Below are positions 39,919 to 62,798 of a DNA stretch of 64,000 nucleotides, piece after piece. The notes below the pieces were generated by a model. It made no database searches and was not told the origin of the DNA. It saw only the letters and a list, made by a program, of their open reading frames with translations. The stretch is from a virus. The DNA lies in the IMG/VR virus record IMGVR_UViG_3300037423_000584; one strand, 5' to 3'. Numbering within the stretch: position 1 is the first letter of the stretch; every line of letters begins with the position of its first letter. The position numbers and the translations under genes are program-made.

Positions 39919-42003
39919 TTATTGATTTCTTTTAATAAATCTAGCACCGTTATTTTTAATCCAATTTTTACCGTTAGCATCGAATTTAGCAAGTCCGTGA
40001 CCTCTATACATAGACCTATTTTCTCCTGCTTTAACTTTTCCTATTGTCTCTCTTGTTCCACCTACGGCTTTATATTGAACTTTAAAGACTGTGCTTTTAT
40101 CTTTGTTTCTAGAATAATAGTTGGCATATAATAATGCAGAATATCTATCTTTTCTTAGGTGTCCCTTCTTGCTTCCTTCTAATTTAATAGTAGGAGTATC
40201 GAAAGTTTCCTTACCAAGTGTAGAAGAAGGAGTAACAACGATTGTTGTCATTTCGTTCTTTAATTCCTCTATTTCTTCTACTAGATCTTCATAGGTATCG
40301 AATTTAATATTATTTACTTCATCTAGCTTAATGGCTTTTTCAAGTTCAATAGTATCAAACATTGGGAATAGAAGGATTTTATCTTGTAAATCCTTTAACA
40401 TTCCGTGGTTAGCTTCTGCGTTTATTTCTGCATTTGGTGCAATTAGTTCCAATATATGAATTCCTTCTTCTATATCGGAAGGTTTTGGTTTTTCAGGATC
40501 AACAATTTCATATACAGGAAATTCGCCTTCTTCACAGGTATATTGACTTGCCAAAGCTTCTGCGATTGCAGTACCGCCACCGTTTTTATCCATCATAATA
40601 CGTTCTATATTAAAAGTACGCATTAGTCCACGAATCTTTTTAGCAATATATTTATAATAGTCATCTTCTAAAGCTATACCAAGTTGTTTCATATATGCTT
40701 TAAAAGCATTGTATTTCTTTCTATTTGTAGTCCAGCAATTTACAACTCTTCTGTGATCTTGATATAGTTCAAGCAAAACTATGGCAGCATTGTCTTGATC
40801 TGCTGCGGGGTCTACGCCCATGATATAAATTCTTTCAGCATCACCAGTTCTGGAAGCAGAGAATTGGACATTACGACCTGATTGAGTCATAATCGGCTTA
40901 TTCGTAGTAGCAGCTTCAATGATTGATCTCTTGTAGAATCCATCGCTGTCTGCTTGAAATATGCCACAATATTCCATCAAGAATTGACCAGTATGTAGAT
41001 TTGCTTTGGCCTGTGATACTATACCTGCGTCAAGATATCCTTCTGGCAAATAAGTATATGGAATTCTTAAAATCGCATAATCTTTCCAATCAAAACCTTC
41101 AATTTCTGATTTATCTTCATTTGCAAATACAGTTGATAGCTTTTTCATTTCTCCTTTTGAAGATATAATAGTATGCCATTTCTTGAATTGAATATAAAAA
41201 TGGTTAAAAGCATAATATGCTGTTCCACTATAAACTATCTGGTTTCCTTTAATACCTGCCTTTGTTAAAGCTTTAATTTCATCGCTCCATTCTCCAAGAG
41301 CTTTGAGCTTCTTGTTAATCATAGCTTTCTTAACTTTTTCAACAGGAGAAGAAGATACGACACCGAAACCTTGAACTACTGTGGCAAAGATTTCTTGAGG
41401 AATAGATGCATATTCGTCGCAAAGGATGTAGTTTGCACGCATACCTCTGATCTTAGAACCATCGCCAAGAGGAATTGCAGTAAATAAACTATCTCCAATT
41501 CTTAATTCTACTCTGTCTACTTCTCTTCTTGGACCACCATTCTTTCCTCCAATATCTTTTAGGATAGGAGATTTTTCCCAAATATTTATGGCATAATCCA
41601 TTACTGCTCTAGATTGTCTAAATGCAGCACCGACGATGACAATCTTGCAACCGGGATGGAATATCATTCTCAGAAGTGCATATACTGCAAGAATAAAACT
41701 CTTGCCAGCACCGCGAGAAGCTATCAACATTGGGAATCTCTTATTCCACAATGTTTCTAATATAACTACTTGGAATGGAAGAAGATCTACTCCTAAAAGA
41801 ACTTTAGCAGCAAAGTGAAGATATTCTTGATTCATCAATGTCTGAACCATATCTTCAACAGGATCTTCTGGTGGTCTATCTAATGGATAATCAAGAAGTG
41901 GATTAAAAACATCTGATGGGATTTCTCCCAATTCCAGATATTCTATGTTTTCGGGTTTATTTAATTCCGAAAGACCATCTAGTAAATCTATATTACTTGC
42001 CAT
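39919..42003 (-). CDS. terL: Terminase large subunit
   Basis: Q-motif (LLPFQ), Walker A SRGAGKS, Walker B ILCDE, coupling motif SGT, nuclease GVDPA and KDRYSA; start at MASNID preferred to 42027. Confidence 0.95.
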   Translation of the reverse strand: MASNIDLLDGLSELNKPENIEYLELGEIPSDVFNPLLDYPLDRPPEDPVEDMVQTLMNQEYLHFAAKVLLGVDLLPFQVVILETLWNKRFPMLIASRGAGKSFILAVYALLRMIFHPGCKIVIVGAAFRQSRAVMDYAINIWEKSPILKDIGGKNGGPRREVDRVELRIGDSLFTAIPLGDGSKIRGMRANYILCDEYASIPQEIFATVVQGFGVVSSSPVEKVKKAMINKKLKALGEWSDEIKALTKAGIKGNQIVYSGTAYYAFNHFYIQFKKWHTIISSKGEMKKLSTVFANEDKSEIEGFDWKDYAILRIPYTYLPEGYLDAGIVSQAKANLHTGQFLMEYCGIFQADSDGFYKRSIIEAATTNKPIMTQSGRNVQFSASRTGDAERIYIMGVDPAADQDNAAIVLLELYQDHRRVVNCWTTNRKKYNAFKAYMKQLGIALEDDYYKYIAKKIRGLMRTFNIERIMMDKNGGGTAIAEALASQYTCEEGEFPVYEIVDPEKPKPSDIEEGIHILELIAPNAEINAEANHGMLKDLQDKILLFPMFDTIELEKAIKLDEVNNIKFDTYEDLVEEIEELKNEMTTIVVTPSSTLGKETFDTPTIKLEGSKKGHLRKDRYSALLYANYYSRNKDKSTVFKVQYKAVGGTRETIGKVKAGENRSMYRGHGLAKFDANGKNWIKNNGARFIKRNQ

Positions 42004-42475
42004 TTTCAGCCCTTGCAACTGCTTCAAAAATAGTTCGTGCTAATCTTTTTCCACATGGTCCTGCATACTTAACACTAATTCCATACTCTACTTCTAATTC
42101 CTCTAGCCACTTCATTACGGTATTACATGGCAATCCTGTTTGAACTTGAGGAGGAGCCATTCCTAAAAGATCATCAGAAAGAGACGACTCAACAATAATA
42201 TATTTATATTTGATATGACGAAGCTTTTCCATTTCTCTTTCGAATCGTTCTCTATTCGCAACTGGACTATAGTTACCAAATAGTTCTCTAAAGCCCATCT
42301 TACGTTCGATTCGGATAATATCCTCGTATCCTTTTAATGAATAATCTCCTGCTTCAAGTGTTCCTACTTCTGTTCCTAATACTTGTATTTTTCCTGCGAC
42401 CTTTTCTTCTGGATGAAAATCCCATCCTTTTTGTTCCCTTGTGTCGCGAATTACAGTCAGTGCTGGCAATCTCAT
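41993..42475 (-). CDS. ERCC4/XPF-type nuclease domain protein
   Basis: IRDTREQ...LEAGDYS...IERK motifs. Confidence 0.85.
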   Translation of the reverse strand: MRLPALTVIRDTREQKGWDFHPEEKVAGKIQVLGTEVGTLEAGDYSLKGYEDIIRIERKMGFRELFGNYSPVANRERFEREMEKLRHIKYKYIIVESSLSDDLLGMAPPQVQTGLPCNTVMKWLEELEVEYGISVKYAGPCGKRLARTIFEAVARAENGK

Positions 42476-49672: not shown

Positions 49673-50090
49673 GTTAGCCAGTACCGAAACCGAAGCGTCT
49701 GCCATTAGGTAGGTGTCAGGGAGTAGGGAAAGCGGATTATGGAAACTCAGTGTGAGTTTCCCCGCTAAGGGTCTAGACTGGTGACGAACGAAAGGATTGC
49801 CCGACACCTAGTAACAAAAACCTAACGGCCGGTATTAGGAATCTGAGATGGGGACAACCCCTGTTGACTGGTTCTAAGGTACGGGTTGGAGTGAAAATCT
49901 CCCGTTGGCTAACCCAACGCAAGTGAATAGTCGATACCTTAGCTAGATAGGCTTGCCCTATTTGCGTCCCGCAAGGGGTGTGGATTCGGACCCGATGCTA
50001 GCGAACGTAATCGGCCACGGGTTTTTGCGATGGCCCGGAAAATCGCACTAGGTACGTCGTGACGACGTGTATGGGTTTACCCCAGCCTAC
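49673..50090 (+). ncRNA. Structured leader / ncRNA downstream of the early promoter
   Basis: Stems TAGGTGTCAGGG/CCCGACACCTA, GGAAACTCA/TGAGTTTCC, CTAAGGTA/TACCTTAG, CCC-GCAA-GGG, ACGTCG-TGA-CGACGT; no credible ORF. Confidence 0.5.
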
Positions 50091-50165
50091 GGTACATAGA
50101 TGGATGGACCGCTGTACTCTGATATAGGGTAGCTGGGTTTAACGCTCCCATTAAGGTAGGTAGTG

Positions 50166-50285
50166 TTGCTTAACCAGTCTTATCATATATCGGAATATTG
50201 GCAGATGATGCCCGGCCTAGGCTATAAGCCTCAGAGAAAGCCGTTAAACTTGGGATTCGCGTTCCCCTCAGTCCCGCTTGTGTGA
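50166..50285 (+). CDS. Small ORF in stem-enclosed cassette A (about 39 aa)
   Basis: AAGGTAGG at 50153, then GTG/TTG start; MLNQSYHISEYWQMMPGLGYKPQRKPLNLGFAFPSVPLV. Confidence 0.4.
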   Translation: MLNQSYHISEYWQMMPGLGYKPQRKPLNLGFAFPSVPLV

Positions 50286-50545
50286 AGCGATACACTGATA
50301 AAACGCTATAGCGTCCGAAAAGATTCGCTTGTGTGACTAATGCCTTACCAGCGTTCACAAGGAATTGAAGTAGGACCACGATTGGAGTCAGCAACTAATC
50401 CGGAAGCTATTTGGATGGCCACTGGATAGCAGGATGTAAATTAAAGAGCGATTGAACGCTTCTATTCAGAGTATAGCCGTCCGTCCATCTGTGGTAAGTA
50501 AACTAGGTGAGTGGTCCGGCCTACCCTCAGAAAAGGTAGGTAGGT

Positions 50546-50812
50546 ATGCAACGGAACACTACGGTTCAAGAGGAACAGGAACGGCGAGAAGTGCAACGCT
50601 TTGGGAAAGCTTGCCACGAAGCGTTAGACGCTTGCCTTCGTAATGTCGAAAGTGCAAGGGTGACGTTTACTGGTCAAGGCGTGGAAGTGGGTGCAATCTC
50701 TCTCCGCATCGTTAAGACGTATGATGGCGAAAACCGGCCGGTTAGGTTGGTATCGGCATCTGCTACGCTCAAATTGCGTCTAAATGCATCGGCAGCTATC
50801 GAAAACAAGTAG
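50546..50812 (+). CDS. Early hypothetical protein (cassette B)
   Basis: AAGGTAGGTAGGT leader; enclosed by helix 50503-50528/50831-50856. Confidence 0.75.
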   Translation: MQRNTTVQEEQERREVQRFGKACHEALDACLRNVESARVTFTGQGVEVGAISLRIVKTYDGENRPVRLVSASATLKLRLNASAAIENK

Positions 50813-50907
50813 TCGGATCGGCTTCGTGCAGAGGGTACGCCGCACCATTCATCTAGGTTACTAGGATATTGCGAGTCTCCCATAGTCCCCTTACAAGGTA
50901 GGTGATT

Positions 50908-51138
50908 ATGGTTCAACATCTAATCAAAGTCGCCAAAGGTACGATTAATAATCCCGAAATCGTTCGGGTCTATACAATCACTAATGGGATTGTGTCGTAT
51001 CACATGGATTTTGTGGATTGGTTATCGGCTACAGAAATGTATCCCGATGGTTCATTTATCGATATGTTCGATGTTGGGATGCATCGTATCGGTGAAACGT
51101 TGGGGTTTTTCCCCGAAATATCAGCACTGGTCAATTAG
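50908..51138 (+). CDS. Early hypothetical protein (cassette C)
   Basis: AAGGTAGGTG leader, ATG at 50908; enclosed by helix 50865-50893/51147-51175. Confidence 0.75.
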   Translation: MVQHLIKVAKGTINNPEIVRVYTITNGIVSYHMDFVDWLSATEMYPDGSFIDMFDVGMHRIGETLGFFPEISALVN

Positions 51139-51251
51139 CGAACCCATAAGGGTTCTATGGGGGATTCTCAATATCTGAAAACATATCTACGGTATCGGTC
51201 AAGGTTTCACTTTTGAGCAATCCGAAAGGATTGCGGAAGGATGGTATTACC

Positions 51252-51719
51252 ATGACTCAGATCGATACTCCCGTCGAATCCTCTGCCGATGCCACTGAAG
51301 GCCAGCGGCAGGGTGCCGCTCCGGCCGCCCCGAACGCGGATGCGGAGCATTCGACCCGCGTCAAGAAGGTGATGGCCGACGTTCTCAAGCCCGGTTTCGG
51401 GAATGAGAACAAGGATGCCGCATTCACCCGCAAGATCGTGCAGTTGACGTTCCAGCGGGAACTCGGGAACGTGGACATCGCCGACAAGTCGGCCGATTCT
51501 GTGTACGCCGAAGCGTGCAAGCGGATCGCCGACAACGCCGAAGTCGAAGGCCAAGCGTTGAAGGAGCGATATATCGCGTCCGTCACCGCCGTCGCCTTGG
51601 GTGCTACGCGGGCCGTTACCCTTAAGGGTAACGTCACCGCGATGGAAGCGAGCAAGGCATACGTCAATTTCAAGCCGTCGGCCAAGCTCAACAACCAGAC
51701 GTTCTTCAACGCTCTGTAA
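51252..51719 (+). CDS. Early Ala-rich protein with GC-rich codons (cassette D)
   Basis: AAGGATGGT leader, ATG at 51252; enclosed by helix 51181-51198/51751-51768. Confidence 0.8.
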   Translation: MTQIDTPVESSADATEGQRQGAAPAAPNADAEHSTRVKKVMADVLKPGFGNENKDAAFTRKIVQLTFQRELGNVDIADKSADSVYAEACKRIADNAEVEGQALKERYIASVTAVALGATRAVTLKGNVTAMEASKAYVNFKPSAKLNNQTFFNAL

Positions 51720-51782
51720 CAAGATCCAACACTCTAACTGTCTCTAGTTTCCGGTATCGTAGATATGTAGTAGCTTAGATAG

Positions 51783-51824
51783 AACAAGAGGCGACCGGGC
51801 ACCGTGCCCGGCCGCTCTTGTTTG
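51783..51824 (+). terminator. GC-rich hairpin / terminator ending the cassette array
   Basis: AACAAGAG-GCG-A-CCGGGCAC...GTGCCCGG-C-CGC-TCTTGTT. Confidence 0.6.
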
Positions 51825-52187
51825 GGAGATAACTACGACATTATGTCGTACCTAACAAATGTTAGGAACGACGGGGAGTCGTACGACATTCTGACACCGA
51901 ACAGGTGTTAGGGTGTCTTTGTGTCGCACCTAACGCTTGGCTAACCAGGCAAGGTGTCGTACCGAACAAAAGCCAGCCGAACAAAAACCTAACAGCAGAC
52001 TCGGATGCCGACAGGCGGAGAGTCTGCGAGCGGCTGCGGCGAAGTACGGGCAACGTGCTTATGATTACTGTATCGGCAATATAGCTCTCTATGCGTCATT
52101 CTGACGCGGTACTACCAAGTAAGATTGTCACACTGTAAATTCAGGCGATGACAATAAGCTATGGTTAGTACATATATCTTATCCGTA

Positions 52188-53260
52188 ATATAGTTCGCCC
52201 CAACCTTGTGATAGGTTGTCGATGATGCGAACAAATGCGGAGTCAACAGTAGCCAAGTACGGAATTGGCTAGGGTTGTCTTGGTATACTTGTAGGTGTCC
52301 AATGATCCTGAAAGGGTGAATTGGGCGTCGAAACTATATCAGGCTTCTACAGTGACTCTGGTGCCTTGGGTTAGCTCTATCGCGTCCCCTATGCTGTTGG
52401 TCAATAGACTGGCGTATAGGTTCGGTGTGGTATCTAATCTGAGAGCATCCCCTCTTTAGACGTAGAGGGTCAAAGACCGAAGGCAAGGCAAAGCACTACG
52501 TGGACACGTAGATGGTTAGGGATTGATACCTAATGGGTTTCCCTATCCTACCTACCTAATACCACAGTGACTAAGCGGTGCATACCGCATATCCAAACAG
52601 GATAGCAACTGTTAGGGATATGGACTGGAACACTGACGAAGGGGTACATATCTACCATTGAAGGCCAGACGGTTATCGAAGCCGAATGTAGATTCCCCGC
52701 TGATACGAAAGAAACTCTATCGAAGGTGCAAAGGCGAAGTCATCTTAGATGACGAAGTAGCCGATGAGGTCGATAGTGACGAGTAGTTGAATGTGAAATG
52801 AATGGCCTAATTAACATAACCCGAACCCAGGATATCCAAGTAAGAACGGTTGGACAGCTATCACATCGAAAGTCAAGCGATGATGCTGCATCACTTCCTA
52901 GTATGAAAACGGATAGCGTCTTTCCTATAATGACGTAAATGGCTGGGATAACTAAACTTATAGACGATTGTAGGTTGTCGTATAACCTACAGTTTGTAGT
53001 GTAACCATTTCAAAACTTGTCTCATGTAATAGTCCCAAACACAATGCAGTCAGAGCAAAGCTCATTCTGAATCCATTGATTATGCGTGGGTTTCGCTATG
53101 GAGTCCTTTGGACTCAGATTGCAACTCTGTCGTCAAACGACATGGACTAACACAGATTAGGTTTCGAAAGAAACTGATACCTCTCGGTATCGTTTTGGAT
53201 GGAAGCACGAACAACACATGCGGGGATCGGTTCGTGAATAACTGACCGATTCCCTTTTTT
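52188..53260 (+). ncRNA. Large ornate non-coding RNA candidate (about 1.1 kb), family unassigned
   Basis: No ORF of 60 aa or more in six frames; about 20 contiguous hairpins, GAAA tetraloops and long-range stems; ends in a terminator; followed by a tRNA. 5' boundary approximate. Confidence 0.7.
53222..53260 (+). terminator. Terminator with TGAATAA loop
   Basis: GGGGATCGGTT..TGAATAA..GACCGATTCCC followed by a T-run. Confidence 0.8.
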
Positions 53261-53293
53261 CGTTTCCAAATCCAGGTTCTAACTAAAAAGGTA

Positions 53294-53366
53294 GGGCATA
53301 TAGCTCAACGGTTAGAGCAGAGCACTCATAATGCTTTGGTTCTAGGTTCGAATCCTAGTATGCCCA
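53294..53366 (+). tRNA. tRNA with CAT anticodon (Ile2 likely; elongator Met possible)
   Basis: Full cloverleaf GGGCATA...CT-CAT-AA...TTCGAAT...TATGCCC-A; no initiator features; CCA not encoded. Confidence 0.9.
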
Positions 53367-53394
53367 TTGGTCATCTAACAAAGGTAGGTTAGCT

Positions 53395-53481
53395 ATGGTC
53401 AAGTTTGATCGAACGTTCTTGTTCTTGGTTTCGTTCCTCATGCTTGCATGGGGATTGGCAGCGGTCGCGTCCAGGCATTAA
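53395..53481 (+). CDS. Small membrane peptide (28 aa)
   Basis: AAGGTAGGT leader; MVKFDRTFLFLVSFLMLAWGLAAVASRH. Confidence 0.6.
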   Translation: MVKFDRTFLFLVSFLMLAWGLAAVASRH

Positions 53482-53539
53482 TTGCGGCGGCTGCTCGGAA
53501 GGATGGTAAGGAAACCCATTTTTACTAAGGTAGGTAAAT

Positions 53540-53815
53540 ATGCGTCGTTCTCTTCGTTCACTCATGGATGGATCGGCCGTAGGTGGCGTTTGTCATTCGG
53601 TTGAAACTCCTAATCCGCGTAGGGTTGGATTTTATCCCAACGTGGAAGGATTTGAATGGATTCATGATAATTTCGTGAATACCGATCAAATCGTTGAACA
53701 GCAAATCAAGCTGGGATATCATCCGGCCGGTTATGGCGGTCCTTATGATATCAAGCAGGAGCAGAGGGGTGATAAGGTTATTATCACTTGGAAATGCTCT
53801 GATAATTGTGATTAA
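53540..53815 (+). CDS. Hypothetical phage protein
   Basis: AAGGTAGGT leader; QIKLGYHPAGYG...TWKCSDNCD. Confidence 0.75.
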   Translation: MRRSLRSLMDGSAVGGVCHSVETPNPRRVGFYPNVEGFEWIHDNFVNTDQIVEQQIKLGYHPAGYGGPYDIKQEQRGDKVIITWKCSDNCD

Positions 53816-53870
53816 AAATCACTCACAACCTCTGTATCGAAAGATACTTAGGTTGTTTCTACCTACCTTG

Positions 53871-53980
53871 AGAATCCATACATTGAATAGATGTGTGGGT
53901 TCTTTGCTCAGCCAGATGGCAGATAATATTAATAAGTCTGGCTAAAGTCCCATCGATGAATAACTGATGGGATTTTTTAT
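53871..53980 (+). terminator. Two terminator-like hairpins with TGAATA(G/A) loops
   Basis: 53871-53905 and 53944-53980, each followed by a T-run. Confidence 0.65.
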
Positions 53981-54140
53981 TGATAAGTACAGGGTCGCCT
54001 CATAGTAAGCCAATTTCCCCTAGTCAGAGCATATAGGGCTTGCAAGGCTTAAGAATGGGATAACCATCACCCTGTTACATTTAATAACAAATCGCGGTCG
54101 TTGCCGCGAAACATGGATACCATCAAAGGTAGGTATTATC

Positions 54141-54647
54141 ATGGAAAAGCTTCGTCGTCTAATTCTTGACGGTATGAAGAACGTTGACGGTTATATTACC
54201 GTTACTGCTTTAGCTGAGGGTATTAAAAAAATATCATCATTTACTGTTGATGAAGTGAAAACCGAAATCAACCGTATGGTTCTTGATGGGATTTTGGATA
54301 CCTTTTATGCCCGATCCGAAGCGGATTTGGCTATTAGACAGCTTAGTAAGAATAAGCAAAAGGTCTATATTCGAGATTATCTTGTGTCTCGAAATGGTGC
54401 GGTTTATATCTCTAATATTCCTCCCAATCATACTTCTGAACAGTTCAAAAATAGGAAGTATCTTTGGAAGAATAACACTTGGCACGATACGTGCTGTACA
54501 AGGGATCTGATGGATTCGGATAGCAAAAACTATACCGATTATCCGGGGATATGGACTTCCTTGGATGAGGCAATTAAGTTTGCTAAGTCTAAAGGTTACG
54601 ATCCTGTCGATCTAACTGATTCTATAATTCAGTCTCAGGTTATCTAA
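54141..54647 (+). CDS. Hypothetical protein (possible N-terminal winged helix)
   Basis: AAGGTAGGT leader; 168 aa. Confidence 0.7.
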   Translation: MEKLRRLILDGMKNVDGYITVTALAEGIKKISSFTVDEVKTEINRMVLDGILDTFYARSEADLAIRQLSKNKQKVYIRDYLVSRNGAVYISNIPPNHTSEQFKNRKYLWKNNTWHDTCCTRDLMDSDSKNYTDYPGIWTSLDEAIKFAKSKGYDPVDLTDSIIQSQVI

Positions 54648-54678
54648 GGCAATAATTCTTCTAAAGGTAGATACTATT

Positions 54679-54933
54679 ATGAATAACGTTGGCAACATTA
54701 GCGGCAAAACGATGATCACTCGTCATGCTGCTAATATCGTCAGTGAGACGAATCGTACTATGTCCGATAAGCCGGTGGCAGCTATGCAGAACCTTTGCAG
54801 GTTGCAGGGATATGTTACTGGCATGATCGAATCCTTGAAAATCAATGACAAGGAATGGATCGATGCCATGATGCATGGCTTGGATTCGGAGATTTTGAAA
54901 TATTCCAGGCAGATCACTATTCAGCATCCATAG
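54679..54933 (+). CDS. Hypothetical protein
   Basis: AAGGTAGA leader; 84 aa. Confidence 0.65.
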   Translation: MNNVGNISGKTMITRHAANIVSETNRTMSDKPVAAMQNLCRLQGYVTGMIESLKINDKEWIDAMMHGLDSEILKYSRQITIQHP

Positions 54934-55086
54934 TTTTGTATCGGCCTATGGTCCAAAACATACCAAAACCTCATTATTAGCTCAAAAACGAGGATTGGTG
55001 TTGTGTCCGCCTATGGTCAAAAACTGACCTTTCGGGTGTTTATAGGTTTAAATTATTACCATAAACATCCTTCTCATACCTACCTT

Positions 55087-55126
55087 GACACTCGTTATAG
55101 GGAAACCTGTAGCGGGTGTTTCTTTT
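55087..55126 (+). terminator. Terminator with GAAA loop
   Basis: GACACTCGTTATAGG-GAAA-CCTGTAGCGGGTGTT followed by TCTTTT. Confidence 0.7.
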
Positions 55127-55504
55127 GGAAACCGCGTTTTTAGCGTGAAAATGCGAGTTTTGTATTATTTGTGAATCGGTCTAGCAAAATATCACATAAA
55201 CAAACCCGAAAACTCGACAAAAAGCTCCGTTGCCTTATATCTATATGGTATAAGTATAAGAATAATAAAGATTATTGATATTGGATATAGGGATTTAATT
55301 AATAAACCCGATTATTTGTTCAAAAATAAGGGTTTTTTCATAAATTACAAGGAAATTCGCAGTATGCACCCCAATTCTATTCGCCTTAGCTATAAGTATT
55401 ATGGTAATAAGGGTAATAGTTATAAGAAAGAGTATAAGTATAAGGGGTTGTTTAGTAATATTAAGATCAAACCTTGATTTTTAGATCAAAAACGAGGTTT
55501 TAGT

Positions 55505-55615
55505 ATGAATCGTGACAATGTACCATCGTCCACGCTTGTAGTAATAGGTATAGTTTCTATGCTTATTATTATGAGTGTGGGATTAGGTATAATTATATGG
55601 TTTATATGGCCTTAA
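55505..55615 (+). CDS. Small membrane protein (36 aa)
   Basis: GAGG upstream; MNRDNVPSSTLVVIGIVSMLIIMSVGLGIIIWFIWP. Confidence 0.5.
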   Translation: MNRDNVPSSTLVVIGIVSMLIIMSVGLGIIIWFIWP

Positions 55616-55728
55616 ACGGCCGTATAGGCTTTGATCACATGTCTAGTGTAATAGTACATTAAAACCTAATTCTAGGTGAATTGGGAATGTATTGTTAGAT
55701 AGGTATACCAAACAAAGGTAGGTATAGT

Positions 55729-55827
55729 ATGCCGTTTGAATACAATAGCGATTATAAGATCGATTGGAACAACGAAGAAGATATGGATTGGTTGATGAAC
55801 CATATCGATTCGTATCTCAGTCGATAG
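55729..55827 (+). CDS. Small acidic protein (32 aa)
   Basis: AAGGTAGGT leader; MPFEYNSDYKIDWNNEEDMDWLMNHIDSYLSR. Confidence 0.6.
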   Translation: MPFEYNSDYKIDWNNEEDMDWLMNHIDSYLSR

Positions 55828-55868
55828 TTATTTGATCTTGGGACTCTGATTTAAAAGGTAGGTGATCA

Positions 55869-56090
55869 ATGAAAGTTAATGTGGTTTTAAAGAATGCAGA
55901 CTTTACAGAATGTAGAGGTCCGATGCTTTTCCATAAAGTCTTTGTCGATCTAGACAAAGCTGTGGAATATGTAAAAGGACAAAGTGGGATATTTGGGGGT
56001 CAGCAGTACGATAAACCTTCTTCGTTTTCTTCCAAAAACAGATTAAGTTTTAATGGTTTTGATATCCTTACCGATATCGAACTTGAATAG
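55869..56090 (+). CDS. Hypothetical phage protein
   Basis: AAAGGTAGGTGATC leader; NADFTECRGPM. Confidence 0.7.
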   Translation: MKVNVVLKNADFTECRGPMLFHKVFVDLDKAVEYVKGQSGIFGGQQYDKPSSFSSKNRLSFNGFDILTDIELE

Positions 56091-56101
56091 GGCAGAATCG
56101 T

Positions 56102-56269
56102 ATGAAACAGAACACTCTCTTTAAGACTCATAAGTTGTTTCAAACAACAGAAAAAGATGGTTTGTGGGGAGGAAAGATCACAATCTATCGTTGCTCTTGT
56201 TGCGGAAAACGATGGAGTGGTATTGGTAAAAAGCCTTCTGCTGGTGAAAGATGCAGAGGGAAGAATTGA
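56102..56269 (+). CDS. Small Cys-containing protein (55 aa)
   Basis: YRCSCCGKRW Zn-ribbon-like motif. Confidence 0.5.
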   Translation: MKQNTLFKTHKLFQTTEKDGLWGGKITIYRCSCCGKRWSGIGKKPSAGERCRGKN

Positions 56270-56506
56270 TATATAGTCCAAATTGCTAAGTGTTTGGCTA
56301 GGACCCTGATACTGAATAAGTATTAGGGTCTTTTTGTAATAATAATCCTGAAACGGCAGGATGGGTTATCAAGTAAAAAAGAGATATAGCCGTCAACTTA
56401 TCTCTTCTCTGATAAGACGGACCAGCGATGGTACACTGGTTATTATTACATTGAAATTCTAATATCGAAAGATGTTAGAGTTTCTTTATTTTAAAGGTAG
56501 GTTAAA

Positions 56507-56917
56507 ATGCGATTCTCTGAATGGTCAGATGGATCGATGCCCGTGTTTCTTAATCCAACCCATGACGAAATTGTGGAATTGGTTAAGTCTCATCCTGATA
56601 CGCTTCGTATCTGTGAAGATGACAATAATATAGCTGTTGCTAGTGGCTATGGTAATACACATACAAGTGTTATTAAAGTCATCAGAAAGAATGCTATAAA
56701 GGATTTCTTTCCATTGGACTTGATTCTCTTTAGAGAAACTGGCCGATGGTTATGGAATCCGTTGGGTCATTGGGATAGGGTACTAACAGAACGAGTAGGA
56801 TTTGAATCTGGGTTGCGGTTTTTGTCTGATAAGACAAAGGAGTTTGTTTTAGAGTTTGTTAGGATTGCAGAGGATCAATATAGGACAACAGAGTCTAATA
56901 TTATAGACTTTGAATAA
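56507..56917 (+). CDS. Hypothetical protein
   Basis: AAGGTAGGT leader; 136 aa. Confidence 0.7.
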   Translation: MRFSEWSDGSMPVFLNPTHDEIVELVKSHPDTLRICEDDNNIAVASGYGNTHTSVIKVIRKNAIKDFFPLDLILFRETGRWLWNPLGHWDRVLTERVGFESGLRFLSDKTKEFVLEFVRIAEDQYRTTESNIIDFE

Positions 56918-56936
56918 AATTTAAGTGGGCTAGGGC

Positions 56937-57176
56937 ATGAAGATTGCGAATTGTCAGTTTAATGAAGATAAACTGATTGTTGTTGTTAATGAAGAATCAG
57001 AATATCTATTCAAACATCCATCTATTAGAGATTTTGGAAGACATTTCTCTAGTAATGGTAAAGAACTTAAACCCACGAATTATTGGGTTTATAAATATGA
57101 TAGATATGATAGAGATTTAAAACTTGACGAAATCATTCTTCATCTGAACGAATTAGGATATACGGTTTTGTTTTAA
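56937..57176 (+). CDS. Hypothetical protein
   Basis: 79 aa in operon. Confidence 0.6.
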   Translation: MKIANCQFNEDKLIVVVNEESEYLFKHPSIRDFGRHFSSNGKELKPTNYWVYKYDRYDRDLKLDEIILHLNELGYTVLF

Positions 57177-57189
57177 AAGGTAGGCAAAT

Positions 57190-57384
57190 ATGCAACAAGA
57201 AAACTTGGAAGATTTGCCAAAACGTCAGCGTGTGAGTGCTGAGAATCACCACGCTTGTCGTCCATTGTGTCCATGTTGTGGAGGTGGCGATAATCGTAAA
57301 GGTTATAAACATACGAAGGCAACAAGCAGATATCATAGTGCAAAGTCCCGTAGATCGAAACCAAAGAAGAAGGATCATCAGTAA
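57190..57384 (+). CDS. Small basic Cys/His-rich protein (possible RNA binder)
   Basis: AAGGTAGG leader; HHACRPLCPCC...KSRRSKPKKKDHQ. Confidence 0.65.
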   Translation: MQQENLEDLPKRQRVSAENHHACRPLCPCCGGGDNRKGYKHTKATSRYHSAKSRRSKPKKKDHQ

Positions 57385-57390
57385 TAAGCA

Positions 57391-57465
57391 GGGCACATAG
57401 CTCAACTATGGTAGAGCAGCCGTCTCCAAAGCGGCAGGTTTTTGGTTCGAATCCAAATGTGCTCG
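57391..57465 (+). tRNA. tRNA-Trp (CCA)
   Basis: Cloverleaf GGGCACA...GCCGT-CT-CCA-AA-GCGGC...TTCGAAT...TGTGCTC-G. Confidence 0.9.
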
Positions 57466-57492
57466 TTATATTAATAGAAAGGTAGGAAGTGT

Positions 57493-57729
57493 ATGAATTT
57501 GATTCAGGGTTGTAATTATCAAGTTAAGAAAGATCATCGTTTTCATCCGGGTCGATTTGGTCAGTTTCAATTTCTTGGTGGGCCTAATCGAGAAGCAATT
57601 GTTATGTCTGATTTGCAAGATTCAAAAAGTATCTTTGCAGTAGGATTGAATGACCTTGTTGATTTTGATCCTGCCAAAGATGATGTATTTGAAAATGCTG
57701 TACCGGGAAGAATGTTAGAATTAAGCTAA
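57493..57729 (+). CDS. Hypothetical protein
   Basis: AAGGTAGG leader; 78 aa. Confidence 0.7.
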   Translation: MNLIQGCNYQVKKDHRFHPGRFGQFQFLGGPNREAIVMSDLQDSKSIFAVGLNDLVDFDPAKDDVFENAVPGRMLELS

Positions 57730-57877
57730 GATCAGCATCTTTGATTGTCCCCTTCGTAGAACTTCAAGATTGAATAAGTCTTGGGTTCTTTTGTAGATAG
57801 GTTAGGTGACATCAGAGTCTTATAAAATGCCGAAAGGTATAGCCTATCTACTTAATTTAAAAATAAAGGTAGACAAC

Positions 57878-58129
57878 ATGAAAGCTAAATATATTATTTT
57901 GGAACGATCTGGTATCGAAATGCCAATTTTGTTTCCAGAATTTATTGAACACATAGATGCTGTACTAATTGGTGGTAAAGTTATATCTGCTGGATTTTTT
58001 GAAGTTATTCTTCGCGAACATTCAAGAATGGAAGTGAGAGCCTACGGAGAAAGCATTAGCCTTAAAGTAAAGGCTAGATTCGAAGATGCTGATTTGATCG
58101 AGAAAATGATCTGTAATTATGAGAATTAA
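57878..58129 (+). CDS. Conserved phage hypothetical protein
   Basis: AAGGTAGA leader favours ATG 57878; PILFP..I.H...VISAGFF...YGESISL. Confidence 0.7.
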   Translation: MKAKYIILERSGIEMPILFPEFIEHIDAVLIGGKVISAGFFEVILREHSRMEVRAYGESISLKVKARFEDADLIEKMICNYEN

Positions 58130-58140
58130 GGTAGGTTTGT

Positions 58141-58590
58141 ATGCAAACCAAATCAATTGTTCGTGAAAACGCAGAAAAAGATCCGAATTATGCACCGTAT
58201 TGTATGCCTTGTCCTCGTTTGGTTCGAATGAAGAAAATCGAACCATTCTTTTGGAAGTGCGATAAGTGCGGTGCCGAATGCGACGAACGAGAGATTAAGC
58301 AAGAAGATATTGATAAGCTTGATGAGCTTCAATCGAAAGAGAATGATGGTCGTGGTATTTCTTGTGTAAAAACCATCCTTTTCTTTCTTAGACATAATAA
58401 AATTGATGAAGCTAGGGCTTGCAGGCAAAACGAAGGCGACAAGATTAATTCTTATCCATTGGTCGAATTACAAATCAACAAGATGTTTGGTTGCAGAACG
58501 CATTTAAGGAAGATGTGTAATCATTGGCTTTGCGTTAGTCTTCTAAATGGGACCAAGGCAAAAACAGTTGTTGCCCCGCATCATGGATAA
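58141..58590 (+). CDS. Zn-ribbon-containing hypothetical protein
   Basis: YAPYCMPC...WKCDKCGA; AAGGTAGGT leader. Confidence 0.7.
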   Translation: MQTKSIVRENAEKDPNYAPYCMPCPRLVRMKKIEPFFWKCDKCGAECDEREIKQEDIDKLDELQSKENDGRGISCVKTILFFLRHNKIDEARACRQNEGDKINSYPLVELQINKMFGCRTHLRKMCNHWLCVSLLNGTKAKTVVAPHHG

Positions 58591-58592
58591 CC

Positions 58593-58901
58593 ATGATTAC
58601 GCATGTTGCTATACTTGATATAAATAAGAAAATTTGGTCATTACCTAGACCCAACCGTCATCATAATGTAATTCATATGATTAATGAACAATCTGGTAGA
58701 GATATTGCCAGAGGTTTATTAAAAGATCATGTGCAAGGATTTATGAATGACTCTGGTCAATTTTTAACACGAAAAGAAGCATTTTATGAAGCGTTAAGAT
58801 GTGATCAATTGTTACCACCTTATAATCCAATTAATCCATCTGAAAGACATGGTGAGATTAATAAAAATCCTAGAGAATTATTCTCAGAGGATTTGTGGTA
58901 G
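58593..58901 (+). CDS. Conserved phage hypothetical protein
   Basis: PNRHH...QGF...FLTRKEA...LFSEDLW. Confidence 0.75.
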   Translation: MITHVAILDINKKIWSLPRPNRHHNVIHMINEQSGRDIARGLLKDHVQGFMNDSGQFLTRKEAFYEALRCDQLLPPYNPINPSERHGEINKNPRELFSEDLW

Positions 58902-58974
58902 ATTTTGCCCCTTGAGTTCCAGGCAGGAATCCAATAGTAAACAACTGTTGGATTCTTTTAAAGGTAGGTGAAAT

Positions 58975-59301
58975 ATGGAAGATCCGGTTTTAGAAGCTAT
59001 ATCGCTTCTAATGGAAAGTTTCTTGCCTCAAATGTCTGGTTCTGAGACAGTTAGACATAGAATTTGTGATGAATTTGTTCAGTTCCAAGTTGATAGAGAT
59101 ATCTTTATCGATTGGATGAAAGTTCATCCTGAATTTAAGATGCTTAAGGAGATCAAAGCACTAGTTCTTCTTAAGAACAATAAGAACAGAATGATTAAAC
59201 AGTTTTCTGTTGATTCATTTATTACTTCTTATCTTACTAAACCTAATCGTCATAAAGATTCATTGGTTCGTGAAGCTGGACGAAAGTTTGGTTTGACATA
59301 G
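58975..59301 (+). CDS. Hypothetical protein
   Basis: AAGGTAGGTG leader; 108 aa. Confidence 0.7.
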   Translation: MEDPVLEAISLLMESFLPQMSGSETVRHRICDEFVQFQVDRDIFIDWMKVHPEFKMLKEIKALVLLKNNKNRMIKQFSVDSFITSYLTKPNRHKDSLVREAGRKFGLT

Positions 59302-59361
59302 ACGATCAATAAGATCGTCATTGATCTTATATGATCTTTCTTTCTTAAAAGGAGAAAGGTC

Positions 59362-59616
59362 ATGGACAAAGAGACTCAAAGAAAAATAGATCATCTGTTT
59401 CAAAAACAGATAATGAAAAATATTCCAGAAATTGTGTTAATGGCACAACTGGTTATTTTTAGTCAAGAGAATAGAGATACAGAAGCAATAAAGAAAGAGA
59501 TCCAGCACAGACGACGGTTAAATAAATGGCTTGATGAATATGGTACATGGCACAAGGGACAAGCTCCATATGGTGCCGATGCTATACTTGAACAAATAAA
59601 TAAAATGAAATCGTAA
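59362..59616 (+). CDS. Hypothetical protein
   Basis: AAGGAG/AAGGT leader; 84 aa. Confidence 0.65.
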   Translation: MDKETQRKIDHLFQKQIMKNIPEIVLMAQLVIFSQENRDTEAIKKEIQHRRRLNKWLDEYGTWHKGQAPYGADAILEQINKMKS

Positions 59617-59640
59617 TCAATTACAAATTATTTTATGTAT

Positions 59641-59676
59641 TGATGAGTTCGCTTCCGTATACTGATGAGTTCGCTT
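59641..59676 (+). repeat. 14-bp direct repeat (operator-like)
   Basis: TGATGAGTTCGCTT twice, 22-bp period. Confidence 0.7.
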
Positions 59677-59694
59677 GACAAAGGTAGGTAGATT

Positions 59695-60204
59695 ATGCGG
59701 AATTTGGCTAAACCGTTTCGTCCGGTTCGTTTGATTAATGATAAACCTTATGAATTGGATACCATGCGTATGGGTCCGAAGGGTCAATCGGTTAACACAA
59801 CTGGTTGTTTCGGTGTTCAATCCACATACGGGGTTCGTGGATTAAGTATTGTTAATCGGAAAATAGCTCCGGGCAAACACAAAGGTGCGGTTAAGAAAAA
59901 AAATGGTTCTAGGCTTATTTCTGCAAGAACTATTCTTAACTTTGATCGAACATCTTTGCCGAAATTGTTAAATATTCGGAACGATCTTGTTTTCCTTAAG
60001 GCTCTTAATGGTCTTTCGGAAGATATGGATCAGGTTTTGAATGATTTAACTGATTATATGTTGGCAAGTTATGGTTCATCGATTAAGAAGTTCGACGAAC
60101 AACGTATTCGTACTGCCAAGGGGATGATTGGCAAAATTCAAGTTAAACCCATGAATGATCTTAAAGAGAAGATCAATCGGGCTTTGGCTATCATGGGTGG
60201 ATGA
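59695..60204 (+). CDS. Basic hypothetical protein
   Basis: AAGGTAGGT leader; 169 aa. Confidence 0.7.
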   Translation: MRNLAKPFRPVRLINDKPYELDTMRMGPKGQSVNTTGCFGVQSTYGVRGLSIVNRKIAPGKHKGAVKKKNGSRLISARTILNFDRTSLPKLLNIRNDLVFLKALNGLSEDMDQVLNDLTDYMLASYGSSIKKFDEQRIRTAKGMIGKIQVKPMNDLKEKINRALAIMGG

Positions 60205-60422
60205 TGAACACTTTGGATAAAATAAAACTTATTCCTAAAAATAAGTGGATGAAAGACAGAATACAACGACATGGAGATGTTGTTATATTCAAAAAAGAAG
60301 GTTTGTTTAAAGGTAAAAAAGCTTTACTTGTAGAATCACTTAATAATACTTCTATTGTCAATACCAAGTGGTTGGCTTGGATTGTTTTAGAAGAAGACGC
60401 ATCTATTGTTGTAATAAAATAG
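60201..60422 (+). CDS. Hypothetical protein
   Basis: 73 aa, ATGA-coupled to the upstream gene. Confidence 0.6.
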   Translation: MMNTLDKIKLIPKNKWMKDRIQRHGDVVIFKKEGLFKGKKALLVESLNNTSIVNTKWLAWIVLEEDASIVVIK

Positions 60423-60471
60423 ATTTCCTACCTTGAGAATCCTGTAACTGAATAAGTTGCAGGATTTCTTT

Positions 60472-60573
60472 GTATACATACGAGGCCGCGGTGGCTCGGG
60501 GAGACGTTCCCTAGTTCCGTTCGATTCGGGTACTTGGTAGAGATAGCATTCGACAGCTATCCCGTATGTATAC
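60472..60573 (+). ncRNA. Small multi-hairpin RNA candidate
   Basis: Perfect 11-bp closing stem GTATACATACG/CGTATGTATAC; internal hairpins with TTCGA loops. Confidence 0.55.
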
Positions 60574-60582
60574 TTAATATAT

Positions 60583-60689
60583 GGCGTTGGGTAGGCCGGC
60601 GTCGATAACCGGCTAAATCTTCGGATGACCTTGGCAGGACTACCCTCGGAAAAGGCTCATTACCATCCGGGTTCGAATCCCGAACGCCA
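60583..60689 (+). ncRNA. tRNA-like RNA (acceptor + T arm, non-canonical core)
   Basis: GGCGTT...CGGG-TTCGAAT-CCCG-AACGCC-A; no D or anticodon arm. Confidence 0.6.
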
Positions 60690-60762
60690 TTTTCTCTCGG
60701 TAAGGTATAGCAAAGTAGTTATACCTTATTATCCTGTTGTTTTATATAGGGGAAGTTAGCTT

Positions 60763-60972
60763 ATGTTTGGGGATCATTTGTCTTTGGCCAATCTTTGGGT
60801 AAAGATGGCAAAGTTGCATGAGCTAATGGGACAAGATGCAGCATCTAGATTAGCAATTAGAAATGCTTCTTATCACATTGAAGAAGCAGCAAAACTTCAA
60901 CATCAAACTGTTCGATTTAATAGGGAAGGCGGTGATGTCATATGCTCTAGTACAAAAATAGCTTGTGCATAA
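60763..60972 (+). CDS. Hypothetical protein
   Basis: 69 aa; AGGGG upstream. Confidence 0.5.
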   Translation: MFGDHLSLANLWVKMAKLHELMGQDAASRLAIRNASYHIEEAAKLQHQTVRFNREGGDVICSSTKIACA

Positions 60973-61137
60973 GTCGGACCCCCATTCTTATGCACTAATA
61001 GCTGATTAGGGGTACAAATTTGGAGGATATATGCAAGCTTAGCTTGTACTACTTAATAAACAATAAAATAAATTAAATATCACACGCGGATTCCGATGCT
61101 TCAAATACCTCATTCTGAATAAGAGTGGGGTATTTTT

Positions 61138-61395
61138 ATGGAACCTATCGAAGAAGCAAAAGAGCTTCTAAGAACAATATACTATTATGCCACTAGAGAT
61201 TCTAATATTCTTTGGTGGCATTCATTGAATAGCGAGACAGCACTAGAACTACTTAATAATGGATCTTTGATTGATATCTATGATTTTTTGACAGATATCA
61301 AAGATTGGGCCACTAGTGAAGGTGATGATGTTGGTCCCGATTGGTGGCAACAAAATAATTTAACGAAACGAATTTTATCTATTGACCTTTCATAA
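61138..61395 (+). CDS. Hypothetical protein
   Basis: 85 aa; start abuts the terminator hairpin. Confidence 0.6.
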   Translation: MEPIEEAKELLRTIYYYATRDSNILWWHSLNSETALELLNNGSLIDIYDFLTDIKDWATSEGDDVGPDWWQQNNLTKRILSIDLS

Positions 61396-61407
61396 AGGTA
61401 GGTAATC

Positions 61408-61662
61408 ATGAGCAAAGAACAACTGCTCGAAACAGTTGGAAGTTTTACTTGGAGCTTTCATGATAAGTTCCTTGTCGAGATTCCAAATGTTGGCAATTTT
61501 GTTTGGAGCGATCCAGATTATCGTGGGGATAATTCCTTTAAACGATATGATGGAAATTACAAACAGTGGTGCAAAGAAGAAGGAATTCCTTTCGGTCGCG
61601 ATAAAGGAAAACATAAGATTCGAAATTATTGCGGATCTGAAATCAAGATTGTCGGACTGTAA
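61408..61662 (+). CDS. Hypothetical protein
   Basis: AAGGTAGGT leader; 84 aa. Confidence 0.7.
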   Translation: MSKEQLLETVGSFTWSFHDKFLVEIPNVGNFVWSDPDYRGDNSFKRYDGNYKQWCKEEGIPFGRDKGKHKIRNYCGSEIKIVGL

Positions 61663-61691
61663 ATCTATTGATTTATTAAAGGTAGGTTGAT

Positions 61692-62204
61692 ATGGCATGG
61701 GTCACGTTACATGATCTTTTATCTCCAAATTTAAATCTTTATGGCATCGTTCCACTAGATGCTACTATAACTTTAATCAGTGGTTCTGATGATGAATCAT
61801 CATTCTTTCGTTATGAATATAAAAAGAATGATTATATAGAAGAAATGATTCGTCTCGATAAGACAAAAATGTCGATTCGCGATTTTATCGACAAATTTGC
61901 CATTCTTGCAAAATCAACTGAATGGGGTGTTTCTAAAAATGGATCTTTAATCCATCATTCTGATGGTTTATATCGTGTAAAGGATGGCAAACTAGTTTCA
62001 TTTGAAGTAAATGGCGGTCAAATAGTTTTTCTTACATACTGTCAATTAGATTTGACAGAATGGTTGAAAGAACAACCGGACGATATTCTTGCTCAATTCA
62101 TGAAGCATTCGTTTGGATGGCGAAGAGAATACAAAGAGTTGGCAAATAATCTGTGTAATAAACTTGCAAGGCAAATCAACCTTTTGCAAGGCAGATATGA
62201 ATAA
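61692..62204 (+). CDS. Hypothetical protein
   Basis: AAGGTAGGT leader; 170 aa. Confidence 0.7.
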   Translation: MAWVTLHDLLSPNLNLYGIVPLDATITLISGSDDESSFFRYEYKKNDYIEEMIRLDKTKMSIRDFIDKFAILAKSTEWGVSKNGSLIHHSDGLYRVKDGKLVSFEVNGGQIVFLTYCQLDLTEWLKEQPDDILAQFMKHSFGWRREYKELANNLCNKLARQINLLQGRYE

Positions 62205-62212
62205 GGTGCCTT

Positions 62213-62518
62213 ATGCAACCTAAAGTAAGGCGTCATCGTCGCATCTATGGTCGGATAAGTCTTAGCGATCCTTGGAATAAACTATGTTGGGATTTGCTTG
62301 ACGAGGGTCGTAGTTATGCTTATATAAGTCAAAAGACTTATCTGACATACTATCAGATTACTTATCGAGTAAAGAAATGGAATAAGAAAGTTTCTTATTA
62401 TAGAAATGGAACAGGGCAATCTAAAGCAGCTAGTAGAAGAATGAAACGATTAATTCTTCTCGAAGAACGTATCGAGAAGATGGTTATGGGAAGCAAACGG
62501 ATTGTTGTTTCTCTTTAG
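62213..62518 (+). CDS. Basic HTH-like DNA-binding protein
   Basis: LLDEGRSYAYISQKTYLTYYQITYRVKK. Confidence 0.55.
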   Translation: MQPKVRRHRRIYGRISLSDPWNKLCWDLLDEGRSYAYISQKTYLTYYQITYRVKKWNKKVSYYRNGTGQSKAASRRMKRLILLEERIEKMVMGSKRIVVSL

Positions 62519-62798
62519 TTATCGAAGATAACAGGGATGGTGGCCATGGGGTTGTATGTTCAATTTGTAATCTTGGATATTCTCGATTGGTTCGACAATA
62601 TCCTCAACAGCGATCATTGATCGCAAGAAGGCTATATGTCCAGCAATCTTCACGGTTCTCATGACGGTTATGCTATGCGTACTGCTAATAAAGCCGTTGC
62701 TGGTGGTGTGATTCTTGTTTGGGGATTTGTCATTCTTGTGGTTGTTATGATGATAATTGGTTGGGTTATCAATCTGTTTAATTAATCTGGGAGGATTA

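Follow-up and report, generated by a model that had tools for sequence, protein, structure and literature searches.

Candidate anti-leader tracts at the 3′ ends of early messages in an uncultured phage with a private ribosome-binding leader

The question raised by this locus is why several early messages of an uncultured phage end in an exact complement of the leader that precedes the early genes. The locus lies in a stretch of 64,000 nucleotides (nt), here called the window, which corresponds to bases 42356-106355 of the 172,542-bp IMG/VR phage record IMGVR_UViG_3300037423_000584. The minus strand was found to carry the structural and packaging genes, with the terminase at 39919-42027 and a tape-measure-like protein of 1995 amino acids, and a plus-strand sector of small open reading frames (ORFs) was found from ~50,000 onward, the early sector being ~12.6 kb long. 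Three tracts with the RNA sequence CCUACCUU (DNA CCTACCTT) were found in this sector's 3′ untranslated regions (UTRs). They are read here, tentatively and at slightly less than even chances, as anti-leader elements that would close the private ribosome-binding site (RBS) of the early mRNAs in cis or in trans.

The early leader and the three tracts

The early leader AAGGTAGG was found in 17 plus-strand copies between 50153 and 61686, whereas 1.4 copies were expected (both strands, whole window), and it is followed by the ATG after a gap of 4-6 nt. The leader (AAAGGUAGGU as RNA) consists of the canonical extended Shine-Dalgarno (SD) sequence (AAAGGAGGU; DNA AAAGGAGGT) with one inserted U, and the form AAAGGTAGGT is the type that this phage carries in many copies. 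The gene leaders in the rest of the genome were found to contain GGAG, AGGA or AAGG, those of the late genes being GGAG or AGGA. As the early leader is the canonical SD plus one U, pairing with an ordinary 16S tail should remain possible, the duplex containing a bulge. With a generic tail sequence, the pairing energy was -10.6 kcal/mol for the private leader (bulged U), -14.4 kcal/mol for the leader without the U and -8.2 kcal/mol for the late leader. A host 16S rRNA with a variant anti-SD (CCUACCUU; 3′ end GGAUCACCUACCUU, DNA GGATCACCTACCTT) was considered as a partner of the leader and rejected. Three matches to it were found in 185,579 species genomes, and both of the two that were inspected lay outside an rRNA context; on this 16S-end scan the leader is not taken to be matched to an odd host ribosome. 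A role of the motif as a promoter element was rejected as well: upstream of the leaders no sequence was found to be conserved, and the anti-leader tracts are not surrounded by a -35/-10 geometry.

All the motifs that the original prediction had quoted were recovered at their positions, and the tracts at 53860, 55076 and 60427 were confirmed to lie after a stop codon (45, 143 and 4 nt past it, respectively) and directly 5′ of a terminator hairpin. All of these features are on the plus strand. The first tract, A1 (UACCUACCUU, DNA TACCTACCTT, 53860-53869), lies in the 3′ UTR of ORF 53540-53815 and is the exact complement of AAGGUAGGUA; it is contained in a 13-nt single strand between two hairpins and has an opening energy of 0.4 kcal/mol. 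The second, A2 (AUACCUACCUU, DNA ATACCTACCTT, 55076-55086), follows ORF 54679-54933 and has an opening energy of 0.1-0.2 kcal/mol, and the third, A3 (CCUACCUU itself, 60427-60434), follows ORF 60201-60422 with an opening energy of 1.0-1.2 kcal/mol. The ORFs flanked by the tracts gave no significant match in Pfam or PHROGs, and no convincing sigma-70-like promoter was found upstream of the tracts.

The spacer between tract and terminator stem was found to be 0 nt in all three cases, the stems beginning at 53870, 55087 and 60435. The three ends share an upstream hairpin (53825-53856 in the case of A1) followed by a single strand ending in (UA)CCUACCUU, a 13-15-bp hairpin and a U-rich tail, with fold z-scores of -6.1 (53822-53912), -3.9 and -5.6. 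Terminator T1 (53870-53904) was found to contain a 14-bp stem with three G-U pairs and the loop UGAAUAG followed by the weak U tract UUCUUUGCUC; T2 (55087-55120) contains 15 pairs followed by UCUUUUGG, and T3 (60435-60470) contains the loop UGAAUAAG and 16 nt, CCTACCTTGAGAATCC, in common with T1. T2 and T3 passed an intrinsic-terminator scan, whereas T1 combines its 14-bp stem with a weak tract.

The exact 8-mer CCTACCTT was observed three times on the plus strand of 50000-62600 against a dinucleotide-shuffle mean of 0.067 (~45-fold), followed by five 7-mers against 0.24 and six 6-mers against 0.78, and the observed 8-, 7- and 6-mer counts were reached by none of 300 shuffles. On the plus strand of the whole genome four exact 8-mers were found, whereas ~1.2 were expected, the fourth being at window position 75019 inside a tRNA-like RNA. 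All four are non-coding and in the sense orientation; three touch a terminator stem and one is held by the tRNA-like RNA. No anti-SD flank was seen genome-wide on terminators outside the early sector. The leaders lie upstream of the tracts without an intervening terminator.

The hairpins form a family of at least six members in the early sector, most of them with the loop UGAAUA(A/G). Among six copies, nine of the 14 stem pairs were found to be changed on both sides, and 86.7% of the cells were paired compared with 67% after shuffling. The stem covariation score was 0.69 against 0.26 in the shuffles, none of which (of 500) reached it. The G-U pairs of the stems would be A-C on the other strand, and the hairpins are therefore plus-strand RNA structures. 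The 8-nt flank was found to be identical in three copies although the stems had drifted. An origin of the tracts by inversion of a terminator-plus-leader module was rejected, the spacing being 0 nt instead of 5-9 nt and the G-U pairs suiting the plus strand only.

Accessibility, pairing and the proposed mechanism

Opening of the three tracts was computed to cost 0.1-1.2 kcal/mol, whereas the median for random 10-nt windows of the same sector was 5.0 kcal/mol and only 1.3% of such windows had an opening energy at or below 1.0 kcal/mol. Exact, exposed, 45-fold enriched and confined to 3′ UTRs, the tracts are for these reasons hard to reconcile with neutrality. With 16 leaders, each tract gave duplex energies between about -12 and -20 kcal/mol (means -13 to -15 kcal/mol), compared with -4.1 ± 2.0 kcal/mol for random 17-mers. 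The anti-leader was found to form 8-11 perfect base pairs with the private leader at -14.6 to -16.5 kcal/mol, which is stronger than the pairing of the generic 16S tail (-10.6 kcal/mol), whereas the values with the late GGAGA leader were -5.2 to -7.8 kcal/mol; through the inserted U the pairing of the tracts is therefore selective for the early class.

The leader AAGGUAGGUA of ORF 53540 (53527-53536) forms 10 bp with A1, the leader AAGGUAGGUAU (54126-54136) of ORF 54141, with which the unit ending at T2 begins, forms 11 bp with A2, and the leader AAGGUAGG (59681-59688) of ORF 59695, in the unit ending at T3, forms 8 bp with A3, all on the plus strand. When whole presumed transcription units were folded at equilibrium (53515-53912, 54110-55130 and 59665-60475), each tract was paired with the 5′-most leader at a probability (P) above 0.95.

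The original prediction had the 3′ ends pairing back to their own RBS. The part of this that stands is the presence of enriched, exposed tracts for which such pairing is computed to be feasible, whereas the specificity for the own leader was found to be absent. The 10- and 11-nt matches to the leaders at 53527 and 54126 had hinted at a matching of tract and own leader, and this candidate was given up on the energies over all leaders, which were generic.

From these models, the tracts probably could fold back on their message and silence it. The leader would be open to ribosomes during transcription and would be captured once the 3′ end has been made. The 3′ tract would then pair with a free leader, the likeliest partner being the 5′-proximal leader of the same molecule. 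Since the tract abuts the terminator stem, the leader-tract duplex would stack on the terminator helix, and a closed loop would be formed in which the 5′ region is brought beside the 3′ end. Binding of the 30S subunit would be blocked, the mRNA might be exposed to decay, and each early message would in this manner limit itself. Being exposed, the tracts might in addition reach the next unit's leader on read-through RNA, or work in trans.

Control of this kind has several known counterparts. In the sib retroregulation of phage lambda, an RNase III hairpin is formed only in read-through RNA and the RBS is left untouched; there, as proposed here, the sequence around a gene-distal terminator decides the fate of the mRNA through alternative RNA pairing. 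A close likeness is to icaR of Staphylococcus aureus, in which the 3′-UTR motif UCCCCUG pairs with the SD of its own mRNA, blocks initiation and makes a substrate for RNase III (Ruiz de los Mozos et al., PMC3868564). Both have a short pyrimidine-rich anti-SD motif in the 3′ UTR that can base-pair with the SD region of its own mRNA, and the 5′/3′-UTR interaction of hbs in Bacillus subtilis (PMC5737220) may be likened to them. Unlike in icaR, the target in the phage is a phage-specific SD variant common to ~17 genes, and the motif is an exact 8-11-mer set flush with a terminator stem in three units.

In B. subtilis, anti-SD-like 8-mers placed hundreds of nt from an RBS were reported to pair with it in vivo, to block translation and to make the mRNA decay faster (Gill et al., bioRxiv 2025, PMC12697547), and such long-range sequences were found to be depleted from natural genes in the same study. 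In the phage, by contrast, the enrichment of the complement is ~45-fold and its copies are restricted to 3′ UTRs, a pattern suggestive of deliberate use. The tracts also resemble 3′-UTR-derived small RNAs (sRNAs; NarS, PMC7038943; RNase E map, PMC5222698), in which the seed that targets ribosome-binding regions is exposed and immediately precedes an intrinsic terminator, the one that the mRNA uses as well, the phage seed being a perfect anti-RBS for its own gene class. The tRNA-shaped RNA at 75019 of the same phage was found to contain the same complement, CCUACCUU(UU), on the sense strand and presumably for the same leaders; it is a separate RNA on a tRNA-like scaffold, whereas the three copies discussed here are mRNA 3′ ends. 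The PeSL cassettes of T4-type phages sit in the hyperplastic early region (PMC2839356, PMC4122927), where repeated regulatory modules with stem-loops similarly bound small early ORFs; unlike the phage tracts, PeSLs are recombination modules of promoter and stem-loop without an RBS complement. On these models, the feature would belong with the known 5′-3′ UTR and anti-SD control, here in a phage with a private RBS.

A wider proposal, possible although doubtful, is that of a private translation-address system, in which the inserted nucleotide would give the tag AAGGUAGG that the host can read and that only the CCUACCUU RNAs of the phage can close. The anti-tags would take the form of the three mRNA 3′ ends, the tRNA-shaped RNA, a hairpin at ORF 50546 and possibly a 1.4-kb RNA (both considered below), and all early genes could be silenced together while the translation of host and late genes is left alone. 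If the interpretation is true, this would be, as far as the authors know, the first phage with an orthogonal RBS tag on a whole temporal class and with anti-tags at 3′ ends. It would provide a compact, purely RNA-based timer of early gene expression, would carry icaR-type control and the long-range anti-SD effect, known from individual genes of bacteria, over to a coordinated programme of a virus, and would be a model from nature for building expression cassettes that are orthogonal and self-limiting.

Opposing evidence and other explanations of the tracts

Several observations weigh against the tracts as closing elements of the early messages. Among 18 leaders, the own leader was ranked 14th for A1, 3rd for A2 and 6th for A3, and the best partners of the tracts at 53860 and 60427 were found to be leaders of other units. 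The leader of the next unit pairs equally well if the upstream leader is absent and takes ~1/3 of the ensemble if both are present. As a perfect 8-11-mer is always favoured by equilibrium folding, the values of P above 0.95 mean that the pairing can form and do not show that it does. The tract is carried by only three of ~8 early terminators, the terminator at 56300 being among those without it, and the 16 identical nt of T1 and T3 make common descent likely; all three copies may go back to a single element, and the number of independent events would then be smaller. The transcription units and their ends were themselves inferred from hairpins alone.

The terminase has many relatives. Four related genomes that were compared whole were found to contain a canonical AAAGGAG or a polypurine leader and no same-strand complement of it. 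For ORF 54141 no homologue was found. ORF 59695 has a paralogue within the phage itself, and its other homologues are distant and lie on contigs whose leaders differ. The copies of the phage from other samples were 100% identical over the 34 kb compared; the phage occurs in the soil samples JGI 3300037312, 3300037313 and 3300037471 and in Logan runs such as SRR35147169. No enrichment of AAGGTAGG was found in ten long IMG/VR genomes with 44-46% terminase identity, the four genomes above being among them, and the cultured phages are distant relatives only, the terminase having ~25% identity to those of Bacillus phages. In the related genomes L071 (1-7700, minus strand), L046 and L035 (terminase ~44% identical), the early cassettes were found to contain a short GC hairpin, a promoter (TTGAC-N17-TAGACT/TATATA), the polypurine leader GAAAGAAAGAGAGA and a small ORF, and no complement of GAAAGAAAGAGAGA was found on the early strand of these three genomes. 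As their early leader is a different one, a class-specific early leader recurs in this phage group. The anti-leader at terminators is, within the reach of these data, a feature of this phage only.

The other explanation that survives best, although it is unlikely, gives the tracts no role in pairing. Here CCTACCTT would be a conserved sequence on the 5′ side of paralogous terminators or cassette boundaries and the match to the leader a by-product; the flank would have persisted because the duplication is recent, because a protein reads it, or because inverted DNA repeats bound the shuffled early-gene cassettes, comparable to PeSLs. Such a flank agrees with the 16 identical nt of T1 and T3, with the presence of CCTT plus GAG or GAC in all five flanks, and with the absence of the feature from the relatives. 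The CCCCTT versions, discussed below, persist despite their lost complementarity to the leader. A tRNA-Met bracketed by duplicated leader modules shows recombination of leader-containing DNA, and there are known cases of shuffling by way of repeated promoter-terminator cassettes (PMC2839356, PMC4122927). The match itself is hard to obtain in this manner: an arbitrary 8-mer would be the exact complement of the dominant motif with a probability of ~1.5e-5 (by arithmetic, 4^-8), and the match reaches 10-11 nt of the leader consensus. Compensatory divergence was found in the stems and none in the flank, the tracts are unusually unpaired, and evidence of a recombinase or invertase was not found. 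If the closing of early leaders is not true, the locus would still show that terminator and leader families can strongly mirror each other in a fast-evolving early region.

An action mainly in trans is given a smaller chance again. The tracts would belong to short, stable 3′-UTR-derived sRNAs, each made of the 5′ hairpin, the CCUACCUU seed and the terminator, which would titrate all early leaders; with about the same low probability, these sRNAs would be cut out of the early mRNAs during processing, or be transcribed from an internal promoter, and would work alongside the tRNA-shaped RNA at 75019. A 5′ hairpin followed by an exposed seed and an intrinsic terminator is the architecture of bacterial sRNAs, and it is established that sRNAs derived from 3′ UTRs can use the terminator of the parental mRNA (PMC7038943, PMC5222698). 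The seeds were moreover found to be generic for all 16 leaders and not matched to units, and the fourth anti-leader is placed on a separate RNA scaffold. Partners in cis are, however, far ahead in local concentration, and only three sites would serve ~17-20 leaders. The processing site, the promoter and the transcript would all have to be assumed in such a model.

It is improbable, more so than action in trans, that the tracts serve to hide the next unit's leader in read-through RNA, with the terminator enclosed in a long stem, as insulation or translational coupling. The downstream gene would then be translated, with a similarly low probability, only from its own transcript or while a ribosome that terminates just upstream melts the tract. 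In the folds without the upstream leader, A1 was found to pair with the leader at 54126 and A2 with that at 55715 (~9-10 expected bp), A2 matching 55715 over the same 11 nt as 54126, and with both leaders present the downstream one received ~1/3 of the pairing. A3 and the flank at 58908 begin 4 and 1 nt past a stop codon, respectively. The next leader is, however, 257, 629 and 961 nt away from the three exact sites, and the upstream leader is transcribed and available first.

The CCCCTT variants bear on the same explanation. The original prediction had named them near 57749 and 58908, and they were indeed found at 57749-57754 and 58908-58913 (plus strand) as CCCCUU flanks of the terminators at ~57757 and ~58925. 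As anti-leaders they did not hold up, the mean duplex energies being -6.1 and -8.4 kcal/mol, at or near background, and the first of them is a weak, degenerate anti-leader at best. The sequences CUUUGAUUGUCCCCUU and AUUUUGCCCCUU, just 5′ of these two terminators, were predicted to pair with the leader and start region of the next gene (57738-57885 and 58896-58985). In local folds, the pairing of the CCCCUU flanks with the next leaders at 57866 and 58961 encloses the terminator hairpin and leaves UA bulged, which suits masking. These pairings were weak and not partner-specific, the next leaders being ranked 5th and 3rd of 18. From the predicted folds, the pairing of CUUUGAUUGUCCCCUU and AUUUUGCCCCUU could serve translational coupling or the masking of read-through RNA.

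The large RNA and neighbouring features

An ORF-free region of the plus strand, 51816-53262, in which no gene was called, ends in a terminator with the loop UGAAUAAC and corresponds to the large RNA that, according to the original prediction, might bind early leaders in trans. It was found to fold better than shuffles (z = -3.9 for the 951 nt of 52040-52990). No Rfam match was found for it even at E<=1, no nhmmer match in 1.26 Mb of related loci and no blastn match in 50,697 phage records. The sequence CCTACCTACCT at 52547-52557 (CCUACCUACCU as RNA, plus strand) is exactly complementary, as had been stated, to the tandem leader AGGTAGGTAGG, which lies at 50534-50544 on the plus strand and precedes the ATG at 50546.

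The same site had been placed in a junction between helices, whereas every predicted fold put it in the 3′ strand of an irregular hairpin (52492-52572, plus strand, z = -1.9), in which the 5′ strand GUAGAUGG..UAGGGA pairs with the strand holding the motif. The CC and CUAC of the motif pair with GG and GUAG at 52508-52515, six of the 11 nt of 52547-52557 were paired at P>0.95 in the 85-, 951- and 1447-nt folds, and opening of the site was computed to cost 3.1-4.9 kcal/mol. In shuffles, the chance of at least one CCTACCT in this 1447-nt stretch was 0.06, the chance probability of the site being 0.03-0.06. Although the 11-nt perfect complement would form a duplex of -20 kcal/mol with the leader of ORF 50546 and of -13 to -18 kcal/mol with the others, and the irregular, weak helix of this well-folding, ORF-free region could open, it is very improbable that the large RNA uses CCUACCUACCU as an anti-SD-like guide or sponge for early leaders in trans, with a single half-paired site outside any junction, its opening cost of 3-5 kcal/mol, a motif that chance may supply and neither an Rfam family nor a homologue among the relatives compared or cultured phages.

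At ORF 50546 itself, a local hairpin (50520-50544, plus strand) was found. Its CCUACC is paired with GGUAGG, the first of the two in the tandem leader GGUAGGUAGGU. The CCUACC at 50520 is thus a cis anti-leader only 9 nt from the tandem leader, with a fold z-score of -1.5 that is not significant (window 50505-50552).

Further observations concern the surroundings of the leaders and terminators. The tRNA-Met at 53294-53366 was found to be flanked by a direct repeat, CTAAC-(1-6 nt)-AAGGTAGG, at 53279-53295 and 53375-53388. The upstream leader copy overlaps the first two bases of the tRNA and is followed by no ORF, and it looks as if the tRNA had been inserted into a leader module or copied along with one. 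Short direct repeats were found in intergenic positions, cggcctatggtccaaaac / ccgcctatggtcaaaaac at 54942-54959 / 55007-55024 and tgatgagttcgctt at 59641-59654 / 59663-59676, the latter just before the leader at 59681; the repeats of 54942-55024 and 59641-59676 may be protein-binding or promoter-associated sites. Directly downstream of T3, a tRNA-like RNA was found at 60583-60689 with the acceptor GGCGTT/AACGCC and the T arm GGTTCGAATCC, which was not called by ARAGORN or Rfam.

The coding stretches 51252-51719 (for which no family match was found) and 27209-29998 lie in windows with a G+C content of ~51% and ~57%, respectively, compared with ~35% for the genome, and they may have been acquired horizontally. 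At window positions 69821-94863, ORFs were found to start a few nt from the GGGGTATT 3′ ends of tRNA-Glu-like RNAs and to contain no SD-like leader; the starts beside the 3′ ends of these RNAs are a third translation start context in the genome.

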